Shown here in pieces: positions 1,548-27,603 of a stretch of DNA of 64,000 nucleotides. The notes beneath the pieces were generated by a model. That model did not search any database, was not told the DNA's origin, and saw only the letters and a program-made list of their open reading frames with translations. A program made the translations under genes and the position numbers. This DNA comes from an uncultured Thermotogae bacterium (GTDB lineage: Bacteria; Bipolaricaulota; Bipolaricaulia; UBA7950; UBA9294). Within the stretch, counting starts at the first letter, position 1. Each line of letters begins with the position of its first letter. The stretch is taken from contig CAZJLO010000001.1 of assembly GCA_964547105.1 (NCBI GenBank), forward strand, positions 73,134 through 137,133, in the 5' to 3' direction.

Positions 1548-2336
1548 CTAGCACACACGCTCAAGCAACAGCTCATCATCGACGACGTGGTGCTGCGCGA
1601 ACATCCCGACCAACTCGCCCACGCTTGTGTCGGCCTTCTCTTCTCCGGCGATGTCGTAGATGATTTCGCCCTTGTGCATCATCACCAGTCGATCGCCAAG
1701 CTCGATCGCTTGCTCCATGTTGTGGGTAACCATCAAGGTTGTCAGCCCAAGCCGCTCAACAAACGCGCAGGTCATCCGCACGATCATCGCGGCGTTGCTT
1801 GGGTCGAGCGCCGCTGTATGTTCATCGAGCAGCAAGACCTCCGGCTGGGCCAGGGTCGCCATCAGAATCGTCAATGCCTGGCGCTCTCCGCCGGAGAGTG
1901 TCGACACATGGCAATCGAGACGATCTTCCATTCCGATGTTCAACACCTCCAGCTGTTCACGAATGCGGTGTCGCATTCGCGATGGGAGGGCGAGTCGCAG
2001 CGTTCGATGGCCTCTCTTCGAAGCCAGCGCAAGGTTCTCCGCCACGGTCATCGACGGAGCCGTTCCGGCCAGCGGATCTTGAACAATACGACCGATCCGC
2101 CGCGCTCGGATGTGAGGCGGCACACCAGTGAGGTTCATGTCTGCCAGCCGGATCGTGCCCGTCGTGGGGGGAAACGTTCCTGCAATGAGGTTTAAGAGCG
2201 TACTCTTGCCTGCACCATTGGAGCCGATGATCGTGAGAAACTCGCCGGAACGAAGATCAAGATCGATCTGCCGGATTGCCACCTTGCGGTCAGCTCCTAT
2301 CTGGAAAACCTTGGAGACATCCTTCAGGCTCAACAT
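1548..2336 (-). CDS. ABC transporter ATP-binding protein (COG1101-like), third gene of the COG2984-type ABC operon
   Basis: Walker A motif GSNGAGKST, ABC signature LSGGERQ and Walker B LLLDE. It overlaps the permease gene by 7 nt. Confidence 0.8.
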   Translation of the reverse strand: MLSLKDVSKVFQIGADRKVAIRQIDLDLRSGEFLTIIGSNGAGKSTLLNLIAGTFPPTTGTIRLADMNLTGVPPHIRARRIGRIVQDPLAGTAPSMTVAENLALASKRGHRTLRLALPSRMRHRIREQLEVLNIGMEDRLDCHVSTLSGGERQALTILMATLAQPEVLLLDEHTAALDPSNAAMIVRMTCAFVERLGLTTLMVTHNMEQAIELGDRLVMMHKGEIIYDIAGEEKADTSVGELVGMFAQHHVVDDELLLERVC

Positions 2337-3229
2337 GCCCGCACCTTCCTCTGCCGACGTTCCCGAAGCGTCGGTGCCACCAGCGCCAGAATCACCAGGA
2401 GAGAGGTTACGAGCTTCATGTCACTCGCTTGGAACCCGATGACGTAGCCGTAGCGCAACGCCAGAACCACCGCCATTCGGTAGATGATCGATCCAACCAG
2501 CACGCCGGCGGTCATCCATCCAATCCGCGAAGATCGGATCAGCGTAGCTCCGATGATAACGGCCGCCAGACCTGTCACGATCGTCCCGGTTCCCATTCCG
2601 ACGTCTGCGAATCCGTTGTACTGCGCCACCAGGGCGCCGGAGAGGGCAACCAATCCGTTGGCAACAGCGACACCGAGAACCTTCATCGTATTGGTGTTGA
2701 CTCCCTGAGCGGTGATCATCGCTTCGCTATCCCCGGTAGCGCGGAGCGCAAATCCGACCTCCGTGCGAAGAAACAGATCCAGCGCAAGCTTGACGCCAAT
2801 CGCCAGAACGGCAATGAAAGTCAGGATCGCCACCGGTCCAAGCCCGGACCAGGCTGCATCGACAAGGCGCGTCACCGTGCCAATGCGAAGCAGGGACAGG
2901 TTCGGCCGTCCCATGATTCGCAGATTGATCGAATACAGCATGATCATCATCAGCACCCCCGACAGAAGGCTGGTGATCTTCAGCTTCGTATGCAGCAATC
3001 CGGTCACTGTTCCTGCCGCCGCTCCGGCGACGAACGCGATAACAAGAACGGAAAACGGATCAAACCCATATTTGGATAAGAGAAGAGAGGCGATGGCCGC
3101 TCCGGTCACGAAGCTTCCGTCGACGGTGAGATCAGGGAAGTCGAGAATGCGATAGGTTAGGAAAATGCCGAGCGCGGCAATTCCGTAGGCCAGACCTTGT
3201 TCGAGTGCGTGTATGAGAAGCGTCTCCAT
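2330..3229 (-). CDS. ABC transporter permease (COG4120-like)
   Basis: 299 aa, polytopic and hydrophobic. It sits between the SBP and ATPase genes on the same strand. Confidence 0.75.
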   Translation of the reverse strand: METLLIHALEQGLAYGIAALGIFLTYRILDFPDLTVDGSFVTGAAIASLLLSKYGFDPFSVLVIAFVAGAAAGTVTGLLHTKLKITSLLSGVLMMIMLYSINLRIMGRPNLSLLRIGTVTRLVDAAWSGLGPVAILTFIAVLAIGVKLALDLFLRTEVGFALRATGDSEAMITAQGVNTNTMKVLGVAVANGLVALSGALVAQYNGFADVGMGTGTIVTGLAAVIIGATLIRSSRIGWMTAGVLVGSIIYRMAVVLALRYGYVIGFQASDMKLVTSLLVILALVAPTLRERRQRKVRAC

Positions 3230-3244
3230 CGCCGATCTCCCGTT

Positions 3245-4243
3245 TTATTCTTCGTTTCTGGTAAAAGACACGCCGCCGTACAACACCGAAGACGCTCGCT
3301 CGACCACCGACGTCGGGAACACGAATCCGATCAACGCCGCTTCGTCGAGGTTCAAGTGAATTCCTGCACCGGAAACGAACGTCACCGGGATCTCATTGGG
3401 GCGTACACCGCCGAGAATCCGCAATACAAGCTCCCCGGCCGTTAGGCCCAGATCGTAGTAGTCGAATCCGACGGCAAGCGTTGCACCGGCAAGGCTAGTC
3501 GGATCGGCGACAAGAAACGGAATCTTCGCTTCTTGTGAGACGGAAAGGACGGAGTCAAGCGCCGAGACGACCGTGTTGTCCGTTGTCACATACAGGGCAT
3601 CAACCCGCCCGATCAACGACTGTGCAGCAATCGGTACGTTTGCCGACGTGTCCGCACTCGCCGCAATCAGCGAGATGCCGAGGGCCTCCGCCGCTTCGCG
3701 TGCCATATTCGTCAGTACCACGGAATTCGCCTCTCCAGGGTTGTAAACGATGCCGATCGATTCGATGTCATCGGACAACGACTGAAGTAGCGCGATGTCA
3801 TCAGCCACATTGATCATGTCCGAGACTCCGGTGACATTCTCATTGCCGCTCGGATCAGTGGCATCGGGAACAAGCTGAGCCCCAACTGGATCGGTGATGG
3901 CTGCGTAGATGACTGGGGTGTCCGTACCGCGGAACACTTCTGCCGCAGCTTGAGCCGTCGCTGTCGCAATCGCAACGACAAAATCCACCCCCTGTGCCTG
4001 GAAATTCTGGGCAACGGAAATCGCCACGGTGTAGTCTCCCTGAGCACTGGCAAGCAGGTACTCCACGTCAACTCCGTCTTCGTATCCGGCGGCCGTCAAC
4101 GCATCGATCGTTCCCTGTTCCACTGCGTCGAGCGCCGGATGTTCCACGATCTTGCAGATTCCAATCTTCAGCGGGGCGGCCACGCCGACGAGCGAGGCAC
4201 AAACCAGCAGCCCCAATATGATCAACAGTCCTTTTCGCTTCAC
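3245..4243 (-). CDS. ABC transporter substrate-binding lipoprotein, COG2984/ABC_sub_bind-like family (TrpX-like)
   Basis: Signal peptide with a cysteine (LLVCASL) followed by KIGICKIVEHPALD, which is typical of the uncharacterised ABC_sub_bind SBP family. Start is GTG, preceded by AAGGAG. Confidence 0.75.
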   Translation of the reverse strand: MKRKGLLIILGLLVCASLVGVAAPLKIGICKIVEHPALDAVEQGTIDALTAAGYEDGVDVEYLLASAQGDYTVAISVAQNFQAQGVDFVVAIATATAQAAAEVFRGTDTPVIYAAITDPVGAQLVPDATDPSGNENVTGVSDMINVADDIALLQSLSDDIESIGIVYNPGEANSVVLTNMAREAAEALGISLIAASADTSANVPIAAQSLIGRVDALYVTTDNTVVSALDSVLSVSQEAKIPFLVADPTSLAGATLAVGFDYYDLGLTAGELVLRILGGVRPNEIPVTFVSGAGIHLNLDEAALIGFVFPTSVVERASSVLYGGVSFTRNEE

Positions 4244-4427
4244 AACAGCTCCTTCGTCTTGTAAGCTATTCCTCCTGCAGCCCTGGTCTCAGGGCTGCTC
4301 CGAAGCACCGCCCGCGGCAGCGATCTTTGCCGGTCCGTTGCGCGGGCGGCGTCTTCCATCGTTGGGTTCCCACACGCTGAAGTCGGCTCACCTCCTTGCT
4401 GTTTGCGTAAATCCATTTCCATCCCCC

Positions 4428-4461
4428 AAAAAGAAAAGACCGCAGGCAAACGCCTGCAGTC
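4428..4461 (-). terminator. Intrinsic terminator-like hairpin plus U-tract inside the leader of the ABC operon (candidate attenuator)
   Basis: On the minus strand the sequence reads GACtGCAGGC-gttt-GCCTGCgGTC, followed directly by TTTTCTTTTT. It lies about 180 nt upstream of the SBP start codon. Confidence 0.5.
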
Positions 4462-4496
4462 GGCAACTGGCTTCTTCGGGACGCGCTTGTTGGTTG

Positions 4497-4601
4497 CTAG
4501 CGCGCCGCGCAGAAGCCAGGGGTAAACCAATACCAGAAATAGAAGCCGGAGCTGATCGCGTGTCGCAATTGGACTCGTTCGCTGCTCCGTGCTTGGTTCA
4601 T
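4497..4601 (-). CDS. Candidate leader peptide of 34 aa, MNQARSSERVQLRHAISSGFYFWYWFTPGFCAAR, with a tandem Trp/aromatic codon run
   Basis: The ATG lies 9 nt after the -10 hexamer, so the mRNA would be leaderless. Codons 20-26 are F Y F W Y W F. The TAG stop lies 35 nt before the terminator hairpin. It is too short to appear on the ORF track. Confidence 0.4.
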   Translation of the reverse strand: MNQARSSERVQLRHAISSGFYFWYWFTPGFCAAR

Positions 4602-4610
4602 CTTGGAGTC

Positions 4611-4639
4611 ACTATAGGCCGACACGGGCGGTCTGTCAA
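4611..4639 (-). promoter_or_regulatory. Sigma-70-type promoter for the leader/ABC operon: -35 TTGACA, 17-nt spacer, -10 TATAGT
   Basis: The minus strand reads TTGACAgaccgcccgtgtcggccTATAGT. Spacing is optimal and it is divergent from the hrcA promoter. Confidence 0.5.
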
Positions 4640-4647
4640 GACCGACA

Positions 4648-4676
4648 TTGACAACAAACCCAACGGAGCCTATCAT
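4648..4676 (+). promoter_or_regulatory. hrcA-grpE-dnaK-dnaJ promoter: -35 TTGACA, 17-nt spacer, -10 TATCAT
   Basis: The sequence reads TTGACAacaaacccaacggagccTATCAT, immediately followed by CIRCE. Confidence 0.55.
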
Positions 4677-4702
4677 TAGCAGACAGTAATCTTGAGTGCT
4701 AA
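4676..4702 (+). promoter_or_regulatory. CIRCE operator (HrcA binding site), TTAGCAGAC-N9-GAGTGCTAA
   Basis: A 9-N9-9 inverted repeat matching the CIRCE consensus TTAGCACTC-N9-GAGTGCTAA with 2 mismatches. It sits directly upstream of hrcA. Confidence 0.8.
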
Positions 4703-4710
4703 ATACGACG

Positions 4711-5761
4711 ATGAACCTACCTGAGAGACAACGGCTGATTCTGAAAGAGATCGTTGATCGGTATATTCGCTACCGAGAACCGGTTTCATCGCGGATGATC
4801 CTCGAGGACTACGGACTGCGGGTGTCGTCAGCCACGGTCCGCAATGACATGAGCGATCTTGAGGAACGCGAGTTCATCCGCAAGCCGTACTCCTCTTCCG
4901 GACGCGTGCCGACCGTGAAGGGCTACCGATTCTTTGTGGAATGGCTTCTCGACCTCTCCGAATTGACACGCAAGGAGCAGCACGCGGTCGTCGAGGCGTA
5001 TGAGACGCCGTATCTCGAAGTGGCAGAGACGATGCAACACACCGCGTTTCTGCTGGCGAGCATCACCGGCTGTGCTGGGTTTGTCATCCCCGCGCGCGCC
5101 AAAGAGACGCAGCTCAACCGCGTCGTGCTGACAAGATTATCAGCGCATTCGGCGCTGTTGGTCGTCATCTCCGACATTGGCGTTGTCAAGCATGGCGTCG
5201 TCCCGATCGAGGGGCGAATCGATCACAATGTGATCGGGCGGGTCACTCAGCTGATCAATGATAGTCTTCACGGCGTTACGTTGGACCGTGTTCTTCAACT
5301 GGCTTCCGAGGATCGTTCGGATGGCTGGTACGAGCCGTCCGTCCGTCAGGCGCTTCGCGTGCTGCGATTCTTGTTGGCGCGCGAACAGCGCCAGCCGCTT
5401 TTTCTTGAGGGACTGGCAAACGTGCTCCCGGAGCTTCGCCTCGTAGAACCCGAGACCGCCCTTGATCGATTCACCGGTCTCATGAGCGCGCTGAAGGATC
5501 CAACGGCCTTTGTGAATGCGGTTCGTTCCTACCGCGAAGGAGATTCCAGCGTGGCAATCGCCATTGGGGATCTCCCGCTGCCGGGAATGGAGGGTTTCAG
5601 TGTGGTCACAGCCGGATACGGACCTCACGACGGCGTTCTTGGGATCATTGCTCCGCTCTGGATGGATTACAGCAAGGCATTGTCCGCGACGAACTACATC
5701 GGCGCGAGGTTGGAGGCATTCTTCCTCGGCGCTCGCGCCCGTCATGCGGAGGAGGAAGTTC

Positions 5762-26427: not shown

Positions 26428-27603
26428 TTGAAGAAGCTACTCAGCCTGATTGCCATCGCAATGTTAGGTGTGATGGTTGTTTCAGCAATCGGATTCGCGG
26501 AAGGGCAGTTCGCTGTCGTTCTCGATGTAGGCGGGCGAGGCGACTTGTCGTTCAACGACATGGGGTTCCTCGGTGCCGAAGCGGCAGCCGCGGAGTACGA
26601 CATGGAATGGATCGAACTCCAGAGTACAACGGCAGCAGACTACGGCCCGAATCTGCGGAATCTGGCCCGCGCAGAGGAATACGATCTGATCATCGGTGTC
26701 GGATACTTGTTTACCGATGCCATGATTGAGGTCGCGGCCGAGTTCCCGGATCAGAAGTTCGCGATTATCGATGGGTACATCCTGGATACGCCAAACGTCT
26801 TGAGCATCGTCTACGCCGAGTATCAGCCGGCAGCACTGATCGGCGCCCTTGCCGCGATGGCGGGAGCGTACCACGACTACGATGCCGCAGGCGTCGTTCT
26901 GGGGATGGAGATTTCGGTCCTCTACAAGTTCGAGGCTGGTTTCCGGTTCGGGATGGCCTGGGGACTCGACAAGTACGCAGAGGAAACCGGGACGGAAGCT
27001 ACGGTGAATTTCCTGTATGACTACACGGGCTCGTTCGATGACATCGCGCTCGGAAAGACGTCATCCGAAGCGATGCTCGCCCAGGGCGCCGTGGGGATCT
27101 TCAACGTGGCCGGCCCGCTCGGCCTCGGAGACCACGAAGCCGTGGACGAAGCCCATTTGAACGCTGGCACCATGTACGGGCCTCCGTACTACTTCGGTGT
27201 TGACGCAACGCAGGATTACATCGGCAACGGCTACCACGGCATTGCAAGTGCGATGAAGCATGTGGACACCGGTGTCTATGATGCCGTCGTCAGCGTCGCA
27301 ACCGGCACCTACGAAGGCGGCCTGAAGGTGTACGGAATCAACGAAGGCGGCGGATCCATCAGCAACGTGAACGACCTGCTGAATTTCATCCCGTTCGCGA
27401 AGCGACAGGGCGCCGTCACGGTGGATACCTACGAAGTTCTGGCGAACTGGGCTATGAACCGCGCCACGCTCCCCGAGTGGATCTGGGATGCCGTTGACGA
27501 GTTGGAGGCGGGAATCGCTGATGGCTCGATCGAGGTCCCAACCGCGCTTACGTTGGAGCAGATGCGGGCGGTCCGCGCTCAGTACGAACTCGGCGCTCCG
27601 TAG
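26428..27603 (+). CDS. BMP-family (PnrA/Med-like) ABC substrate-binding lipoprotein, nucleoside-type
   Basis: FAVVLDVGGRGDLSFNDMGFLGAE motif. TTG start preceded by AAGGAGG. Confidence 0.8.
   Translation: MKKLLSLIAIAMLGVMVVSAIGFAEGQFAVVLDVGGRGDLSFNDMGFLGAEAAAAEYDMEWIELQSTTAADYGPNLRNLARAEEYDLIIGVGYLFTDAMIEVAAEFPDQKFAIIDGYILDTPNVLSIVYAEYQPAALIGALAAMAGAYHDYDAAGVVLGMEISVLYKFEAGFRFGMAWGLDKYAEETGTEATVNFLYDYTGSFDDIALGKTSSEAMLAQGAVGIFNVAGPLGLGDHEAVDEAHLNAGTMYGPPYYFGVDATQDYIGNGYHGIASAMKHVDTGVYDAVVSVATGTYEGGLKVYGINEGGGSISNVNDLLNFIPFAKRQGAVTVDTYEVLANWAMNRATLPEWIWDAVDELEAGIADGSIEVPTALTLEQMRAVRAQYELGAP

Follow-up and report, generated by a model that had tools for sequence, protein, structure and literature searches.

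Regulation of an aromatic amino acid importer outside the Firmicutes

What controls an ABC importer operon of the TrpXYZ family in a bacterium outside the Firmicutes? The question is raised by a 64,000-nt stretch of DNA (the window; contig CAZJLO010000001.1, positions 73,134 to 137,133) from an 'uncultured Thermotogae' bacterium placed in Bipolaricaulota, a candidate phylum. Its minus strand carries the following operon:

3245 to 4243, minus strand: substrate-binding protein of an ABC importer, TrpX-like (PF04392, E = 4e-72)
2330 to 3229, minus strand: permease (PF02653, E = 1.7e-26)
1548 to 2336, minus strand: ABC ATPase (PF00005, E = 3.5e-29)

An initial annotation of this DNA had described the operon as COG2984 (TrpXYZ-like), had named membership of the binding protein in PF04392 as a point to be checked, which our search confirmed, and had proposed that the operon is preceded by a tryptophan-sensing attenuator, i.e. 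a small open reading frame (ORF) with Trp codons followed by alternative RNA pairings. We find strong comparative evidence that a leader-peptide module does precede this TrpXYZ-family operon in a non-Firmicute. The element is very probably a leader-peptide regulator that senses aromatic amino acids and acts on an intrinsic terminator, T. With moderate confidence we read it as a ribosome-mediated attenuator that would sense charged aromatic tRNAs (Trp, Tyr, Phe) and in which a hairpin, H2, would block T sterically.

Architecture of the leader

The leader is composed of the following elements, given in the order of transcription:

4611 to 4639, minus strand: sigma-70-type leader promoter, TTGACA (4639-4634), 17 nt, TATAGT (4616-4611), with 11 of 12 consensus matches
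4497 to 4601, minus strand: leader ORF of 34 codons plus TAG, with ATG at 4601-4599 and the stop codon TAG at 4499-4497
4523 to 4600, minus strand: 5' domain P1, in which the putative transcript start (4600-4593) pairs with the W25-F26 codons (4530-4523) in the minimum-free-energy fold
4524 to 4544, minus strand: aromatic cluster F20-Y-F-W23-Y-W25-F26, with W23 at 4535-4533 and W25 at 4529-4527
4467 to 4519, minus strand: hairpin H2, 53 nt, -30.7 kcal/mol; codons 28-34 make up its 5' arm, with the stop codon in the loop
4462 to 4466, minus strand: single-stranded spacer UUGCC, 5 nt, between H2 and T
4428 to 4461, minus strand: intrinsic terminator T, a 10-bp stem (4461-4438, -18.3 kcal/mol) followed by UUUUCUUUUU (4437-4428)

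A promoter scan of the 1.1-kb region returned two such sites, compared with 0.4 expected from shuffles, and the promoter is found at the same place relative to the small ORF in most of 39 related leaders. The ATG follows the -10 hexamer after 9 nt and has no Shine-Dalgarno (SD) sequence. Promoter, ATG and ORF had all been described by the initial annotation, with coordinates that were off by 1-2 nt; all three lie on the minus strand. The encoded peptide is MNQARSSERVQLRHAISSGFYFWYWFTPGFCAAR, and its aromatic codon cluster is the presumed stalling site. Windows of seven residues with at least six aromatics occur only twice in the six frames of the 64-kb window, against ~0.05 per shuffle. The other one, FPYWFWY at ~51,985-52,005 on the plus strand, is antisense to a 212-residue ORF (51649-52287, minus strand); without promoter, small ORF or terminator around it (~51,995), it appears to be a chance occurrence. 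No further leader-like modules were found in the window or in the retrieved loci.

The whole leader folds with -75.3 kcal/mol (z = -3.9), and none of 200 shuffles was as stable. Scans for inverted repeats and terminators recovered the 9-nt complement, the nested GC hairpin and the canonical terminator that had been pointed out before. CTGGCTTCT (4519-4511) pairs with AGAAGCCAG (4475-4467), with the GC hairpin nested between them, and together they make up H2, which is one inverted repeat with 21-nt arms (4519-4499 / 4487-4467) that are 86% complementary. H2 begins 10 nt past the first base of W25. The stem of T is GACTGCAGGC-GTTT-GCCTGCGGTC (4461-4438), followed by TTTTCTTTTT. With E values of up to 10 allowed, an Rfam scan of 3900-5000 matched no leader, T-box or riboswitch family, and a scan of the whole window gave only a tRNA above the gathering threshold and no T-box.

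Conservation among relatives

Loci of relatives were taken from species genomes and metagenomes, around homologues of the binding protein. The orthologue occurs in species representatives that are metagenome-assembled genomes and bear the label Bipolaricaulota, Acetothermia or 'uncultured Thermotogae'. The nearest named relatives of the binding protein belong to 'Candidatus Bipolaricaulota bacterium' (90% identity), and a binding protein identical in sequence is also present on metagenome scaffolds. Nine Bipolaricaulota-type genome loci and 29 metagenome loci yielded 38 distinct leaders, the window counted. In all 38, a promoter, a leaderless short ORF containing an aromatic cluster, a large hairpin and a terminator stand before the orthologous PF04392 gene (identity 50-90%). 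The ORF of the relatives has 22-34 codons, and its start codon lies 6-10 nt past the -10 box in the leaders read (L009 is ambiguous). Comparison of orthologous upstream regions had been suggested as a check on the small ORF and its aromatic codons, and both turned out to be conserved over the 38 leaders.

In the six columns from -4 to +1 around the last Trp, the residue is aromatic in 28, 22, 36, 37, 37 and 30 of the 38 leaders (modal residues F, Y, W, Y, W and F). Every leader has 4-7 aromatics in a seven-residue window and at least one Trp, and the peptide outside the aromatic cluster is not conserved. The nearest relatives, L081 and L082 (transporter 89% identical), have FYFYYWF, the first Trp codon TGG being changed to TAC (Tyr); clusters of other leaders include FYGYWF, FFRFFWT, SFYYWFS, FCWYLF and TYFGWYFYFV. 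Synonymous changes (TAT/TAC, TTT/TTC) also occur within the cluster. The aromatic swaps and the synonymous changes together indicate that the amino-acid class is conserved and not the RNA sequence. Trp codons are therefore present, as had been claimed, but the Trp specificity attributed to them does not hold, as the first Trp is Tyr in L081 and L082 and Gly elsewhere. Judged from these sequences, the sensor would be aromatic, with a Y-W-F core, rather than Trp-specific.

Conservation of amino-acid character rather than of exact codons is also a property that a nascent-chain arrest peptide of the TnaC/SecM type might have. The aromatic segment would then sense the free amino acid from within the ribosomal tunnel and the ribosome would stall at or near the stop codon; with the cluster 2-10 residues from the C-terminus, this segment is inside the tunnel at termination. 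Other properties of the peptide make this explanation highly unlikely. Nothing is conserved outside the cluster, the C-terminal residues differ between leaders (A, S, I, V, R, N, C, P), the distance from cluster to stop codon ranges from 2 to 10 codons, and there is no conserved Asp or Pro. TnaC has the pattern W-x3-D-x7-P and acts through Rho-dependent termination; the pattern is not found in the Bipolaricaulota leaders, in which the regulated element is an intrinsic terminator and not a Rho site. In addition, arrest at the stop codon would keep H2 from folding, without obvious effect on T.

Both hairpins are supported by covariation. On a sequence-only MAFFT alignment, 98% of the cells of T are paired and six of its 10 pairs show compensatory changes, and T is also supported by the comparison of its cognate with non-cognate arms (p = 4e-8). 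RNAalifold on this alignment recovers only T, the sequence of H2 being too variable to align; for H2, the hairpin of the window was projected onto the alignment, and per-sequence folds were used besides. H2 is present in every leader, with a length of 29-62 nt and an energy of about -19 to -43 kcal/mol (median -31.4). Its cognate arms pair with -31.8 kcal/mol, compared with -18.4 kcal/mol for non-cognate arms (p = 6e-8). In the projection, 11 of the 12 basal pairs have compensatory changes and the covariation is 0.333 (0.09-0.17 in slid controls), a score reached by none of 500 shuffles; 75% of the cells are paired, compared with 41-48% in the slid controls. The support for P1 is weaker than for H2 or T. 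In the relatives, GAAGC(AGG) pairs with (CCU)GCUUC of Gly-Phe codons, and the cognate pairing has -12.7 versus -10.3 kcal/mol for non-cognate partners (p = 1.5e-4).

A promoter, a short ORF and a strong terminator look self-contained, and in the window T and the start of the transporter gene are 184 nt apart. The leader could thus be an independent small gene or small RNA, with the transporter transcribed from a promoter of its own; in Sinorhizobium, a terminated trp attenuator RNA is described as acting in trans (PMC6614838). This is contradicted by three compact loci (L007-L009), where the U-tract is followed within ~10 nt by the transporter ribosome-binding site (a purine-rich SD sequence) and the start codon. 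Since there is no room for another promoter, the transporter of these loci would be transcribed only by read-through, which makes T regulatory. Moreover, the peptide is conserved in its aromatic codons only, the association with an aromatic amino acid transporter holds over the 38 leaders, and the promoter scan of the window returned no candidate for the minus strand in the stretch from T to the transporter gene. An independent unit is accordingly most improbable.

Search for an overlapping antiterminator

The initial annotation had taken the pairings of the leader to be alternatives, as needed for the switch of an attenuator. This part of the claim was not borne out: H2 and T have no nucleotide in common, and no segment pairs with the 5' arm of T above controls. 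We used three approaches, namely duplex energies of segments compared with shuffles, the same energies compared with those of non-cognate partners, which controls for purine- or pyrimidine-rich composition, and 'snapshots', i.e. folds of a transcript ending at the T loop in which the ribosome footprint is masked. When every landmark segment was paired with every other, the shuffles were exceeded by H2 (z = -5.2) and T (z = -5.5) and, to a weak degree, by P1, but by no other pair. The pairs r1:r4, r2:r4, r3:r4, r3:r5 and loop:r4 beat neither shuffles nor non-cognate partners. A second copy of GGCTTCT, to which the initial annotation had drawn attention, is indeed present at 4547-4541, but even the close relative L083 has GGCTTTG, and the pairing of this copy (r1:r3; GGCUUCU with AGAAGCC) is not above controls. 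In the snapshots, at least 5 nt of the T 5' arm were sequestered in the stalled state in only four of the 38 leaders. Escherichia coli trpL served as positive control. Placing the ribosome at its Trp codons recovered the 2:3 antiterminator (-15.6 kcal/mol), and placing it at the stop codon abolished this pairing.

The leader would nevertheless be a canonical attenuator if an antiterminator sharing nucleotides with T had been missed, be it a pseudoknot, a structure with non-canonical pairs or H2 itself, slightly prolonged into the base of T. Pseudoknots are invisible to RNAfold, and the trp antiterminator of Bacillus subtilis overlaps its terminator by a few nt only. In L094-type leaders, the stem of T can be lengthened at its base (GGAGAGGC with GCCUCC) at the expense of the final two G of H2. 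In the window, however, a 5-nt gap separates the two hairpins and there is no extension of H2. A single loop-spacer match of the window (H2 loop GCAAC with spacer GUUGC), which we considered as a pseudoknot, is missing in the nearest relative L081 and was rejected. Together with the null results for r1:r4, r2:r4, r3:r4 and loop:r4 and the rarity of a sequestered T 5' arm in the stalled state, this renders a missed antiterminator unlikely. Attenuator-finding programs rely on an overlapping antiterminator and would therefore miss elements of this kind.

Ribosome position and proposed mechanism

If H2 and T do not compete for nucleotides, how could translation of the leader ORF affect termination? 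Counted from the first base of the last Trp codon, H2 begins after 6-12 nt across the leaders (mode 9). By toeprint and helicase distances, this is where the front edge of a ribosome lies that has the last Trp codon in its A site. The stop codon is located in the H2 loop in long leaders, that of the window among them, and at the 5' base of H2 in short leaders; a ribosome finishing the peptide must therefore open H2. On the other side of the hairpin, the spacer between H2 and T measures 1-5 nt in 37 of the 38 leaders, with a mode of 3 nt (1-4 nt in 31 leaders, 5 nt in six including the window, 7 nt in one). The median energy of T is -18.2 kcal/mol, and 31 of the 38 terminators are below -15 kcal/mol.

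In our models, H2 stays folded when the footprint is masked at the Trp codons and is gone when it is masked at the stop codon, and H2 is the sole element whose modelled folding depends on ribosome position. Folding of the leader in free and ribosome-masked states, which had been proposed as a check, thus agreed with the earlier claim in that H2 is ribosome-dependent and disagreed in that there is no competition with T. Since the folding of H2 depends on the ribosome and both spacings are conserved, the simplest inference is that folded H2 opposes T.

We propose that transcription begins 1-3 nt before the ATG, which would make the mRNA of the peptide leaderless. With an ample supply of aromatic aminoacyl-tRNAs, the ribosome would enter the 5' arm of H2, halt at the stop codon and hold H2 open. 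The RNA just upstream of T would then be single-stranded, T would fold and the transcript would end at ~175 nt. In a ribosome stalled on the aromatic codons, the front edge would be at the foot of H2, and H2 would fold once made. Ending 1-5 nt before T, the folded hairpin would oppose T by a steric 'tug-of-war', resulting in read-through into the transporter genes. Read-through would be expected with a stalled ribosome or with no ribosome. We consider it likely that stalling leads to read-through; that H2 is coupled to T sterically is a tentative proposal, held with less than even confidence.

Bushhouse, Fu and Lucks, who described the tug-of-war in riboswitches, ascribe it to structures that compete sterically for the exit channel of the polymerase (bioRxiv 2026, 10.64898/2026.06.17.733018). 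According to that study, ~10% of natural ZTP riboswitches are built in this manner, with spacers of <5 nt and terminators below -15 kcal/mol. At the sequence level, the leaders resemble them in that H2 and T do not overlap and that T is below about -15 kcal/mol and has a U-tract. The signal of the riboswitches is a ligand that stabilizes the aptamer, whereas here it would be the position of the ribosome; the preprint covers riboswitch aptamers only and no leader-peptide attenuator.

Because the ends of a hairpin meet at its base, folded H2 would bring the 5' arm of T to within a few nt of the surface of a stalled 70S ribosome. Stalled ribosome and H2 might then form one block that stops completion of the T stem in the polymerase exit channel. 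Such a bulkier block would explain why both spacings are conserved, and the functional core might consist of the 6-12 nt between the last Trp codon and the hairpin and the 1-5 nt between the hairpin and the terminator. This ribosome-gated form of the tug-of-war, which was not described in the literature searched, is speculative, and so is the functional core that it implies. If the steric reading is true, overlap-free 'tug-of-war' antitermination also occurs in translation-coupled regulation. The 38 natural variants with defined spacings make the steric idea directly testable.

Several points weigh against the proposed mechanism. T folds in every modelled ribosome state at equilibrium, so that thermodynamics demands no regulation. 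A footprint boundary at +13 from the A site opens a few basal pairs of H2, and the modelled spacer is 5-9 nt. We rejected an 'effective spacer' as discriminator between the stalled and the stop state as its median is 6 nt in both; these states differ in the size and stability of the upstream structure and not in the modelled spacer. Simple hairpins had little effect on strong terminators in the riboswitch study, and spacers of 3-4 nt already favoured termination by the E. coli polymerase (bioRxiv 10.64898/2026.06.17.733018); the window has a 5-nt spacer and a T of -18.3 kcal/mol. The bulk of the stalled ribosome that is added to H2 is an assumption of this analysis. Furthermore, the snapshots show the T 5' arm least sequestered in the stalled state, which naively favours the opposite logic; the pairings by which it is sequestered are no better than random. 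Finally, the transcription start, termination at T, read-through, stalling, the direction of regulation and the steric step itself are what we infer from sequence and modelling.

Direction of regulation and transporter substrate

Is the importer switched on under starvation, as the proposed mechanism requires? In orthologues from Atribacterota (L010 and L016; 47-50% identical), cmscan detected a T-box in the same position as the leader. In the cmscan alignment, the triplet at the specifier position of both T-boxes is UGG, in the context GAA-UGG-purine; the specifier was placed by what we take to be the layout of T-box stem I. A different regulatory solution for the same transporter had been postulated for this genome, and the UGG T-boxes of the neighbouring phylum accord with it. 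Between these neighbouring phyla, a leader peptide has cleanly taken the place of a T-box at one and the same locus; swaps of T-boxes and leader peptides are a known evolutionary pattern (PMC2965389). In Streptococcus suis, Trp is taken up by the trpXYZ system, which a T-box induces when Trp is low (PMC9382623). The UGG T-boxes and the induction in S. suis favour the standard logic, in which the operon is on under starvation.

With the logic inverted, stalling would insulate T and cause termination, and smooth translation would free the purine-rich 3' arm of H2 to act against T, so that the importer would be on when aromatics are plentiful, e.g. for their catabolism. Induction by tryptophan through a leader peptide does exist in the case of tnaC. 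The snapshots also point in this direction, in that at least 5 nt of the T 5' arm are sequestered in 30 of the 38 leaders in the stop state and in 27 of 38 without ribosome, compared with the four in the stalled state. However, the pairings are weak. The stop-state snapshot reaches only about -3 to -13 kcal/mol in 36 of the 38 leaders, and r3:r4 has z = +0.1, with -7.0 kcal/mol for cognate versus -7.7 kcal/mol for non-cognate partners. T is 2-3 times more stable and nucleates locally. As the orthologues behind UGG T-boxes and trpXYZ of S. suis are regulated in the opposite sense, we regard inverted logic as quite unlikely.

The solved PF04392 proteins 3LKV, 6HNI and 3LFT bind Phe, Tyr and Trp, respectively (PMC6816091), and the binding protein of the window matches them with E = 2.5e-60, 1.2e-46 and 7.8e-44. 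Specificity in this family has been ascribed to a pair of residues, which is Ala/Gln for Trp, Glu/Tyr for Tyr and Ala/Tyr for Phe (PMC6816091). At these positions the window protein has Asp247 and Tyr262, which is closest to the Tyr binder. The same Asp/Tyr pair also occurs in the Atribacterota proteins behind UGG T-boxes, so that the two-residue rule does not discriminate between the aromatics here. The mixed codons of the leader suggest either a broad aromatic specificity of the transporter or sensing of all three amino acids. From the side of regulation, the leader speaks independently for import of aromatic amino acids by this PF04392 clade. An FMN riboswitch was also detected in L010 and L016, ~1.2 kb upstream of the T-box and before a neighbouring gene (T-box and FMN elements: L010 1263-1404 and 2734-2961; L016 1338-1489 and 2674-2882).

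Comparison with known systems

The Bipolaricaulota leaders share with E. coli trpL, and likewise with the classical pheL and hisL, a short ORF with clustered regulatory codons that is followed by an intrinsic terminator and by genes matching the amino acid. As in trpL, the modelled hairpin folds only on a stall at the regulatory codons, and the pairing at the 5' end may limit re-initiation. In trpL, however, the 2:3 antiterminator shares region 3 with the 3:4 terminator, whereas H2 and T share nothing. The Bipolaricaulota leader is also leaderless and lacks a Shine-Dalgarno sequence, has mixed aromatic codons instead of Trp-Trp, controls an importer instead of biosynthesis and has no Rfam leader match. 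Of the features of a classical attenuator, clustered codons, conservation of the codons only, an intervening terminator and, according to the models, a ribosome-dependent hairpin are present, while an overlapping antiterminator is absent.

Leaderless leader peptides comparable to those described here are the poly-Cys short ORFs of mycobacteria, which belong to another phylum. Leader peptides of Deinococcus deserti are leaderless, too; 14 attenuator peptides have been predicted in this organism, one of them for trpEGD (PMC4007540). They differ by phylum and in that they precede tRNA synthetase and biosynthesis genes, and neither a transporter case nor a non-overlapping geometry was reported (PMC4007540). 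Mixed aromatic codons are found in Corynebacterium glutamicum aroR (Phe-Tyr-Phe, before aroF), in which ribosome stalling, as proposed here, likewise controls a gene for aromatic amino acids (PMC11802643). It belongs to another phylum and regulates a DAHP synthase, and Trp codons were not mentioned, whereas Trp is the most conserved residue of the Bipolaricaulota leaders.

The Trp T-box of trpXYZ in Firmicutes and in Atribacterota (L010, L016) acts on the same transporter family from the same position in the 5' untranslated region (UTR), with read-through of a terminator as output, and the signal, lack of charged tRNA, is presumably the same. A T-box senses uncharged tRNA by RNA-RNA contacts and requires no translation, whereas the attenuation proposed here would depend on it. 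Our literature search found no paper on attenuators in Bipolaricaulota or Acetothermia. The present leaders add a deep-branching uncultured phylum to the range of leader peptides that sense amino acids and, as target, a transporter instead of a biosynthetic operon.

Further features of the leader and neighbouring genes

Two more features lie between T and the transporter gene:

4391 to 4397, minus strand: stand-alone Shine-Dalgarno-like motif AAGGAGG(UG), downstream of T
4244 to 4427, minus strand: remaining 5' UTR, with 2-3 GC-rich hairpins before the transporter ribosome-binding site

Of the 38 leaders scanned, 34 have an SD-like match in the 60 nt that follow T (usually AAGGAGG(UG), 0-45 nt after T). 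The purine-rich SD sequence that serves the transporter in the compact loci L007-L009 occupies the corresponding position. We rejected a second small ORF behind this motif, as start codon, frames and peptides are not conserved. The motif could be a relic, a standby or stabilizing site for the 30S subunit, or a partner of the pyrimidine-rich 5' arm of H2.

The stretch from T to the transporter start measures ~130-195 nt in 28 leaders, exactly 160 nt in nine, and is missing from the compact loci; it is thus optional. Its hairpins are very stable and lineage-specific in sequence (L001-L003, L005, L081-L108), with no Rfam match, and a conserved (C)AAGGAUAC motif stands immediately before the transporter ribosome-binding site. 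This stretch might be a second regulatory or stabilizing element.

In two compact leaders, the leader ORF contains an in-frame perfect complement of the anti-SD sequence, AAGGAGGUGAUC (K-E-V-I), ~25-30 nt upstream of the aromatic codons (L007 ~2844-2855, L009 ~2846-2857), and the third (L008 ~2359-2368) has the close variant GGGGAGGUGAUG (G-E-V-M). The motif resembles the 3' arm of H2 and could serve as a 'region 1' for the H2 5' arm or as a pause site.

The apex of H2 (4488-4500 in the window) is rich in UAG triplets and CUAG palindromes, and all three frames are closed by stop codons inside H2 in ~21 of the 38 leaders. These stop codons may keep any ribosome, even a frameshifted one, from the terminator. 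A frameshift at hungry codons that would carry the ribosome through T was considered and rejected, as the alternative frames stop inside H2 in most leaders. In the window, another frame does contain a 96-codon ORF (4530-4240, minus strand), which begins in the aromatic codons and covers H2, T and the entire 5' UTR; its terminal TGA overlaps the GTG of the transporter (GTGA). This frame is open in L081 and closed in L083 and most other leaders, and is probably a by-product of high G+C (58-59% in the window).

Elsewhere in the window, ARAGORN predicted a 99-nt tRNA-Cys (GCA) at 26851-26949 on the plus strand, where the Rfam tRNA model is silent at the gathering threshold. Unless it is a false positive, the candidate has an unusual length, due to an intron or an extended variable arm.

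The divergent neighbours of the leader-transporter operon are hrcA, as originally described, and grpE. The hrcA promoter (plus strand; TTGACA 4648-4653, 17 nt, TATCAT 4671-4676) is arranged back-to-back with the leader promoter, the two -35 hexamers being 8 nt apart, and is followed by a CIRCE-like inverted repeat, TTAGCAGAC-N9-GAGTGCTAA (4676-4702, plus strand). As start codon of hrcA, the ATG at 4711 is probably to be preferred over the GTG at 4696 of the ORF list. The CIRCE-hrcA neighbour is also found upstream of many related leaders, among them L001, L004-L006, L081, L087, L097, L099, L107 and L108.

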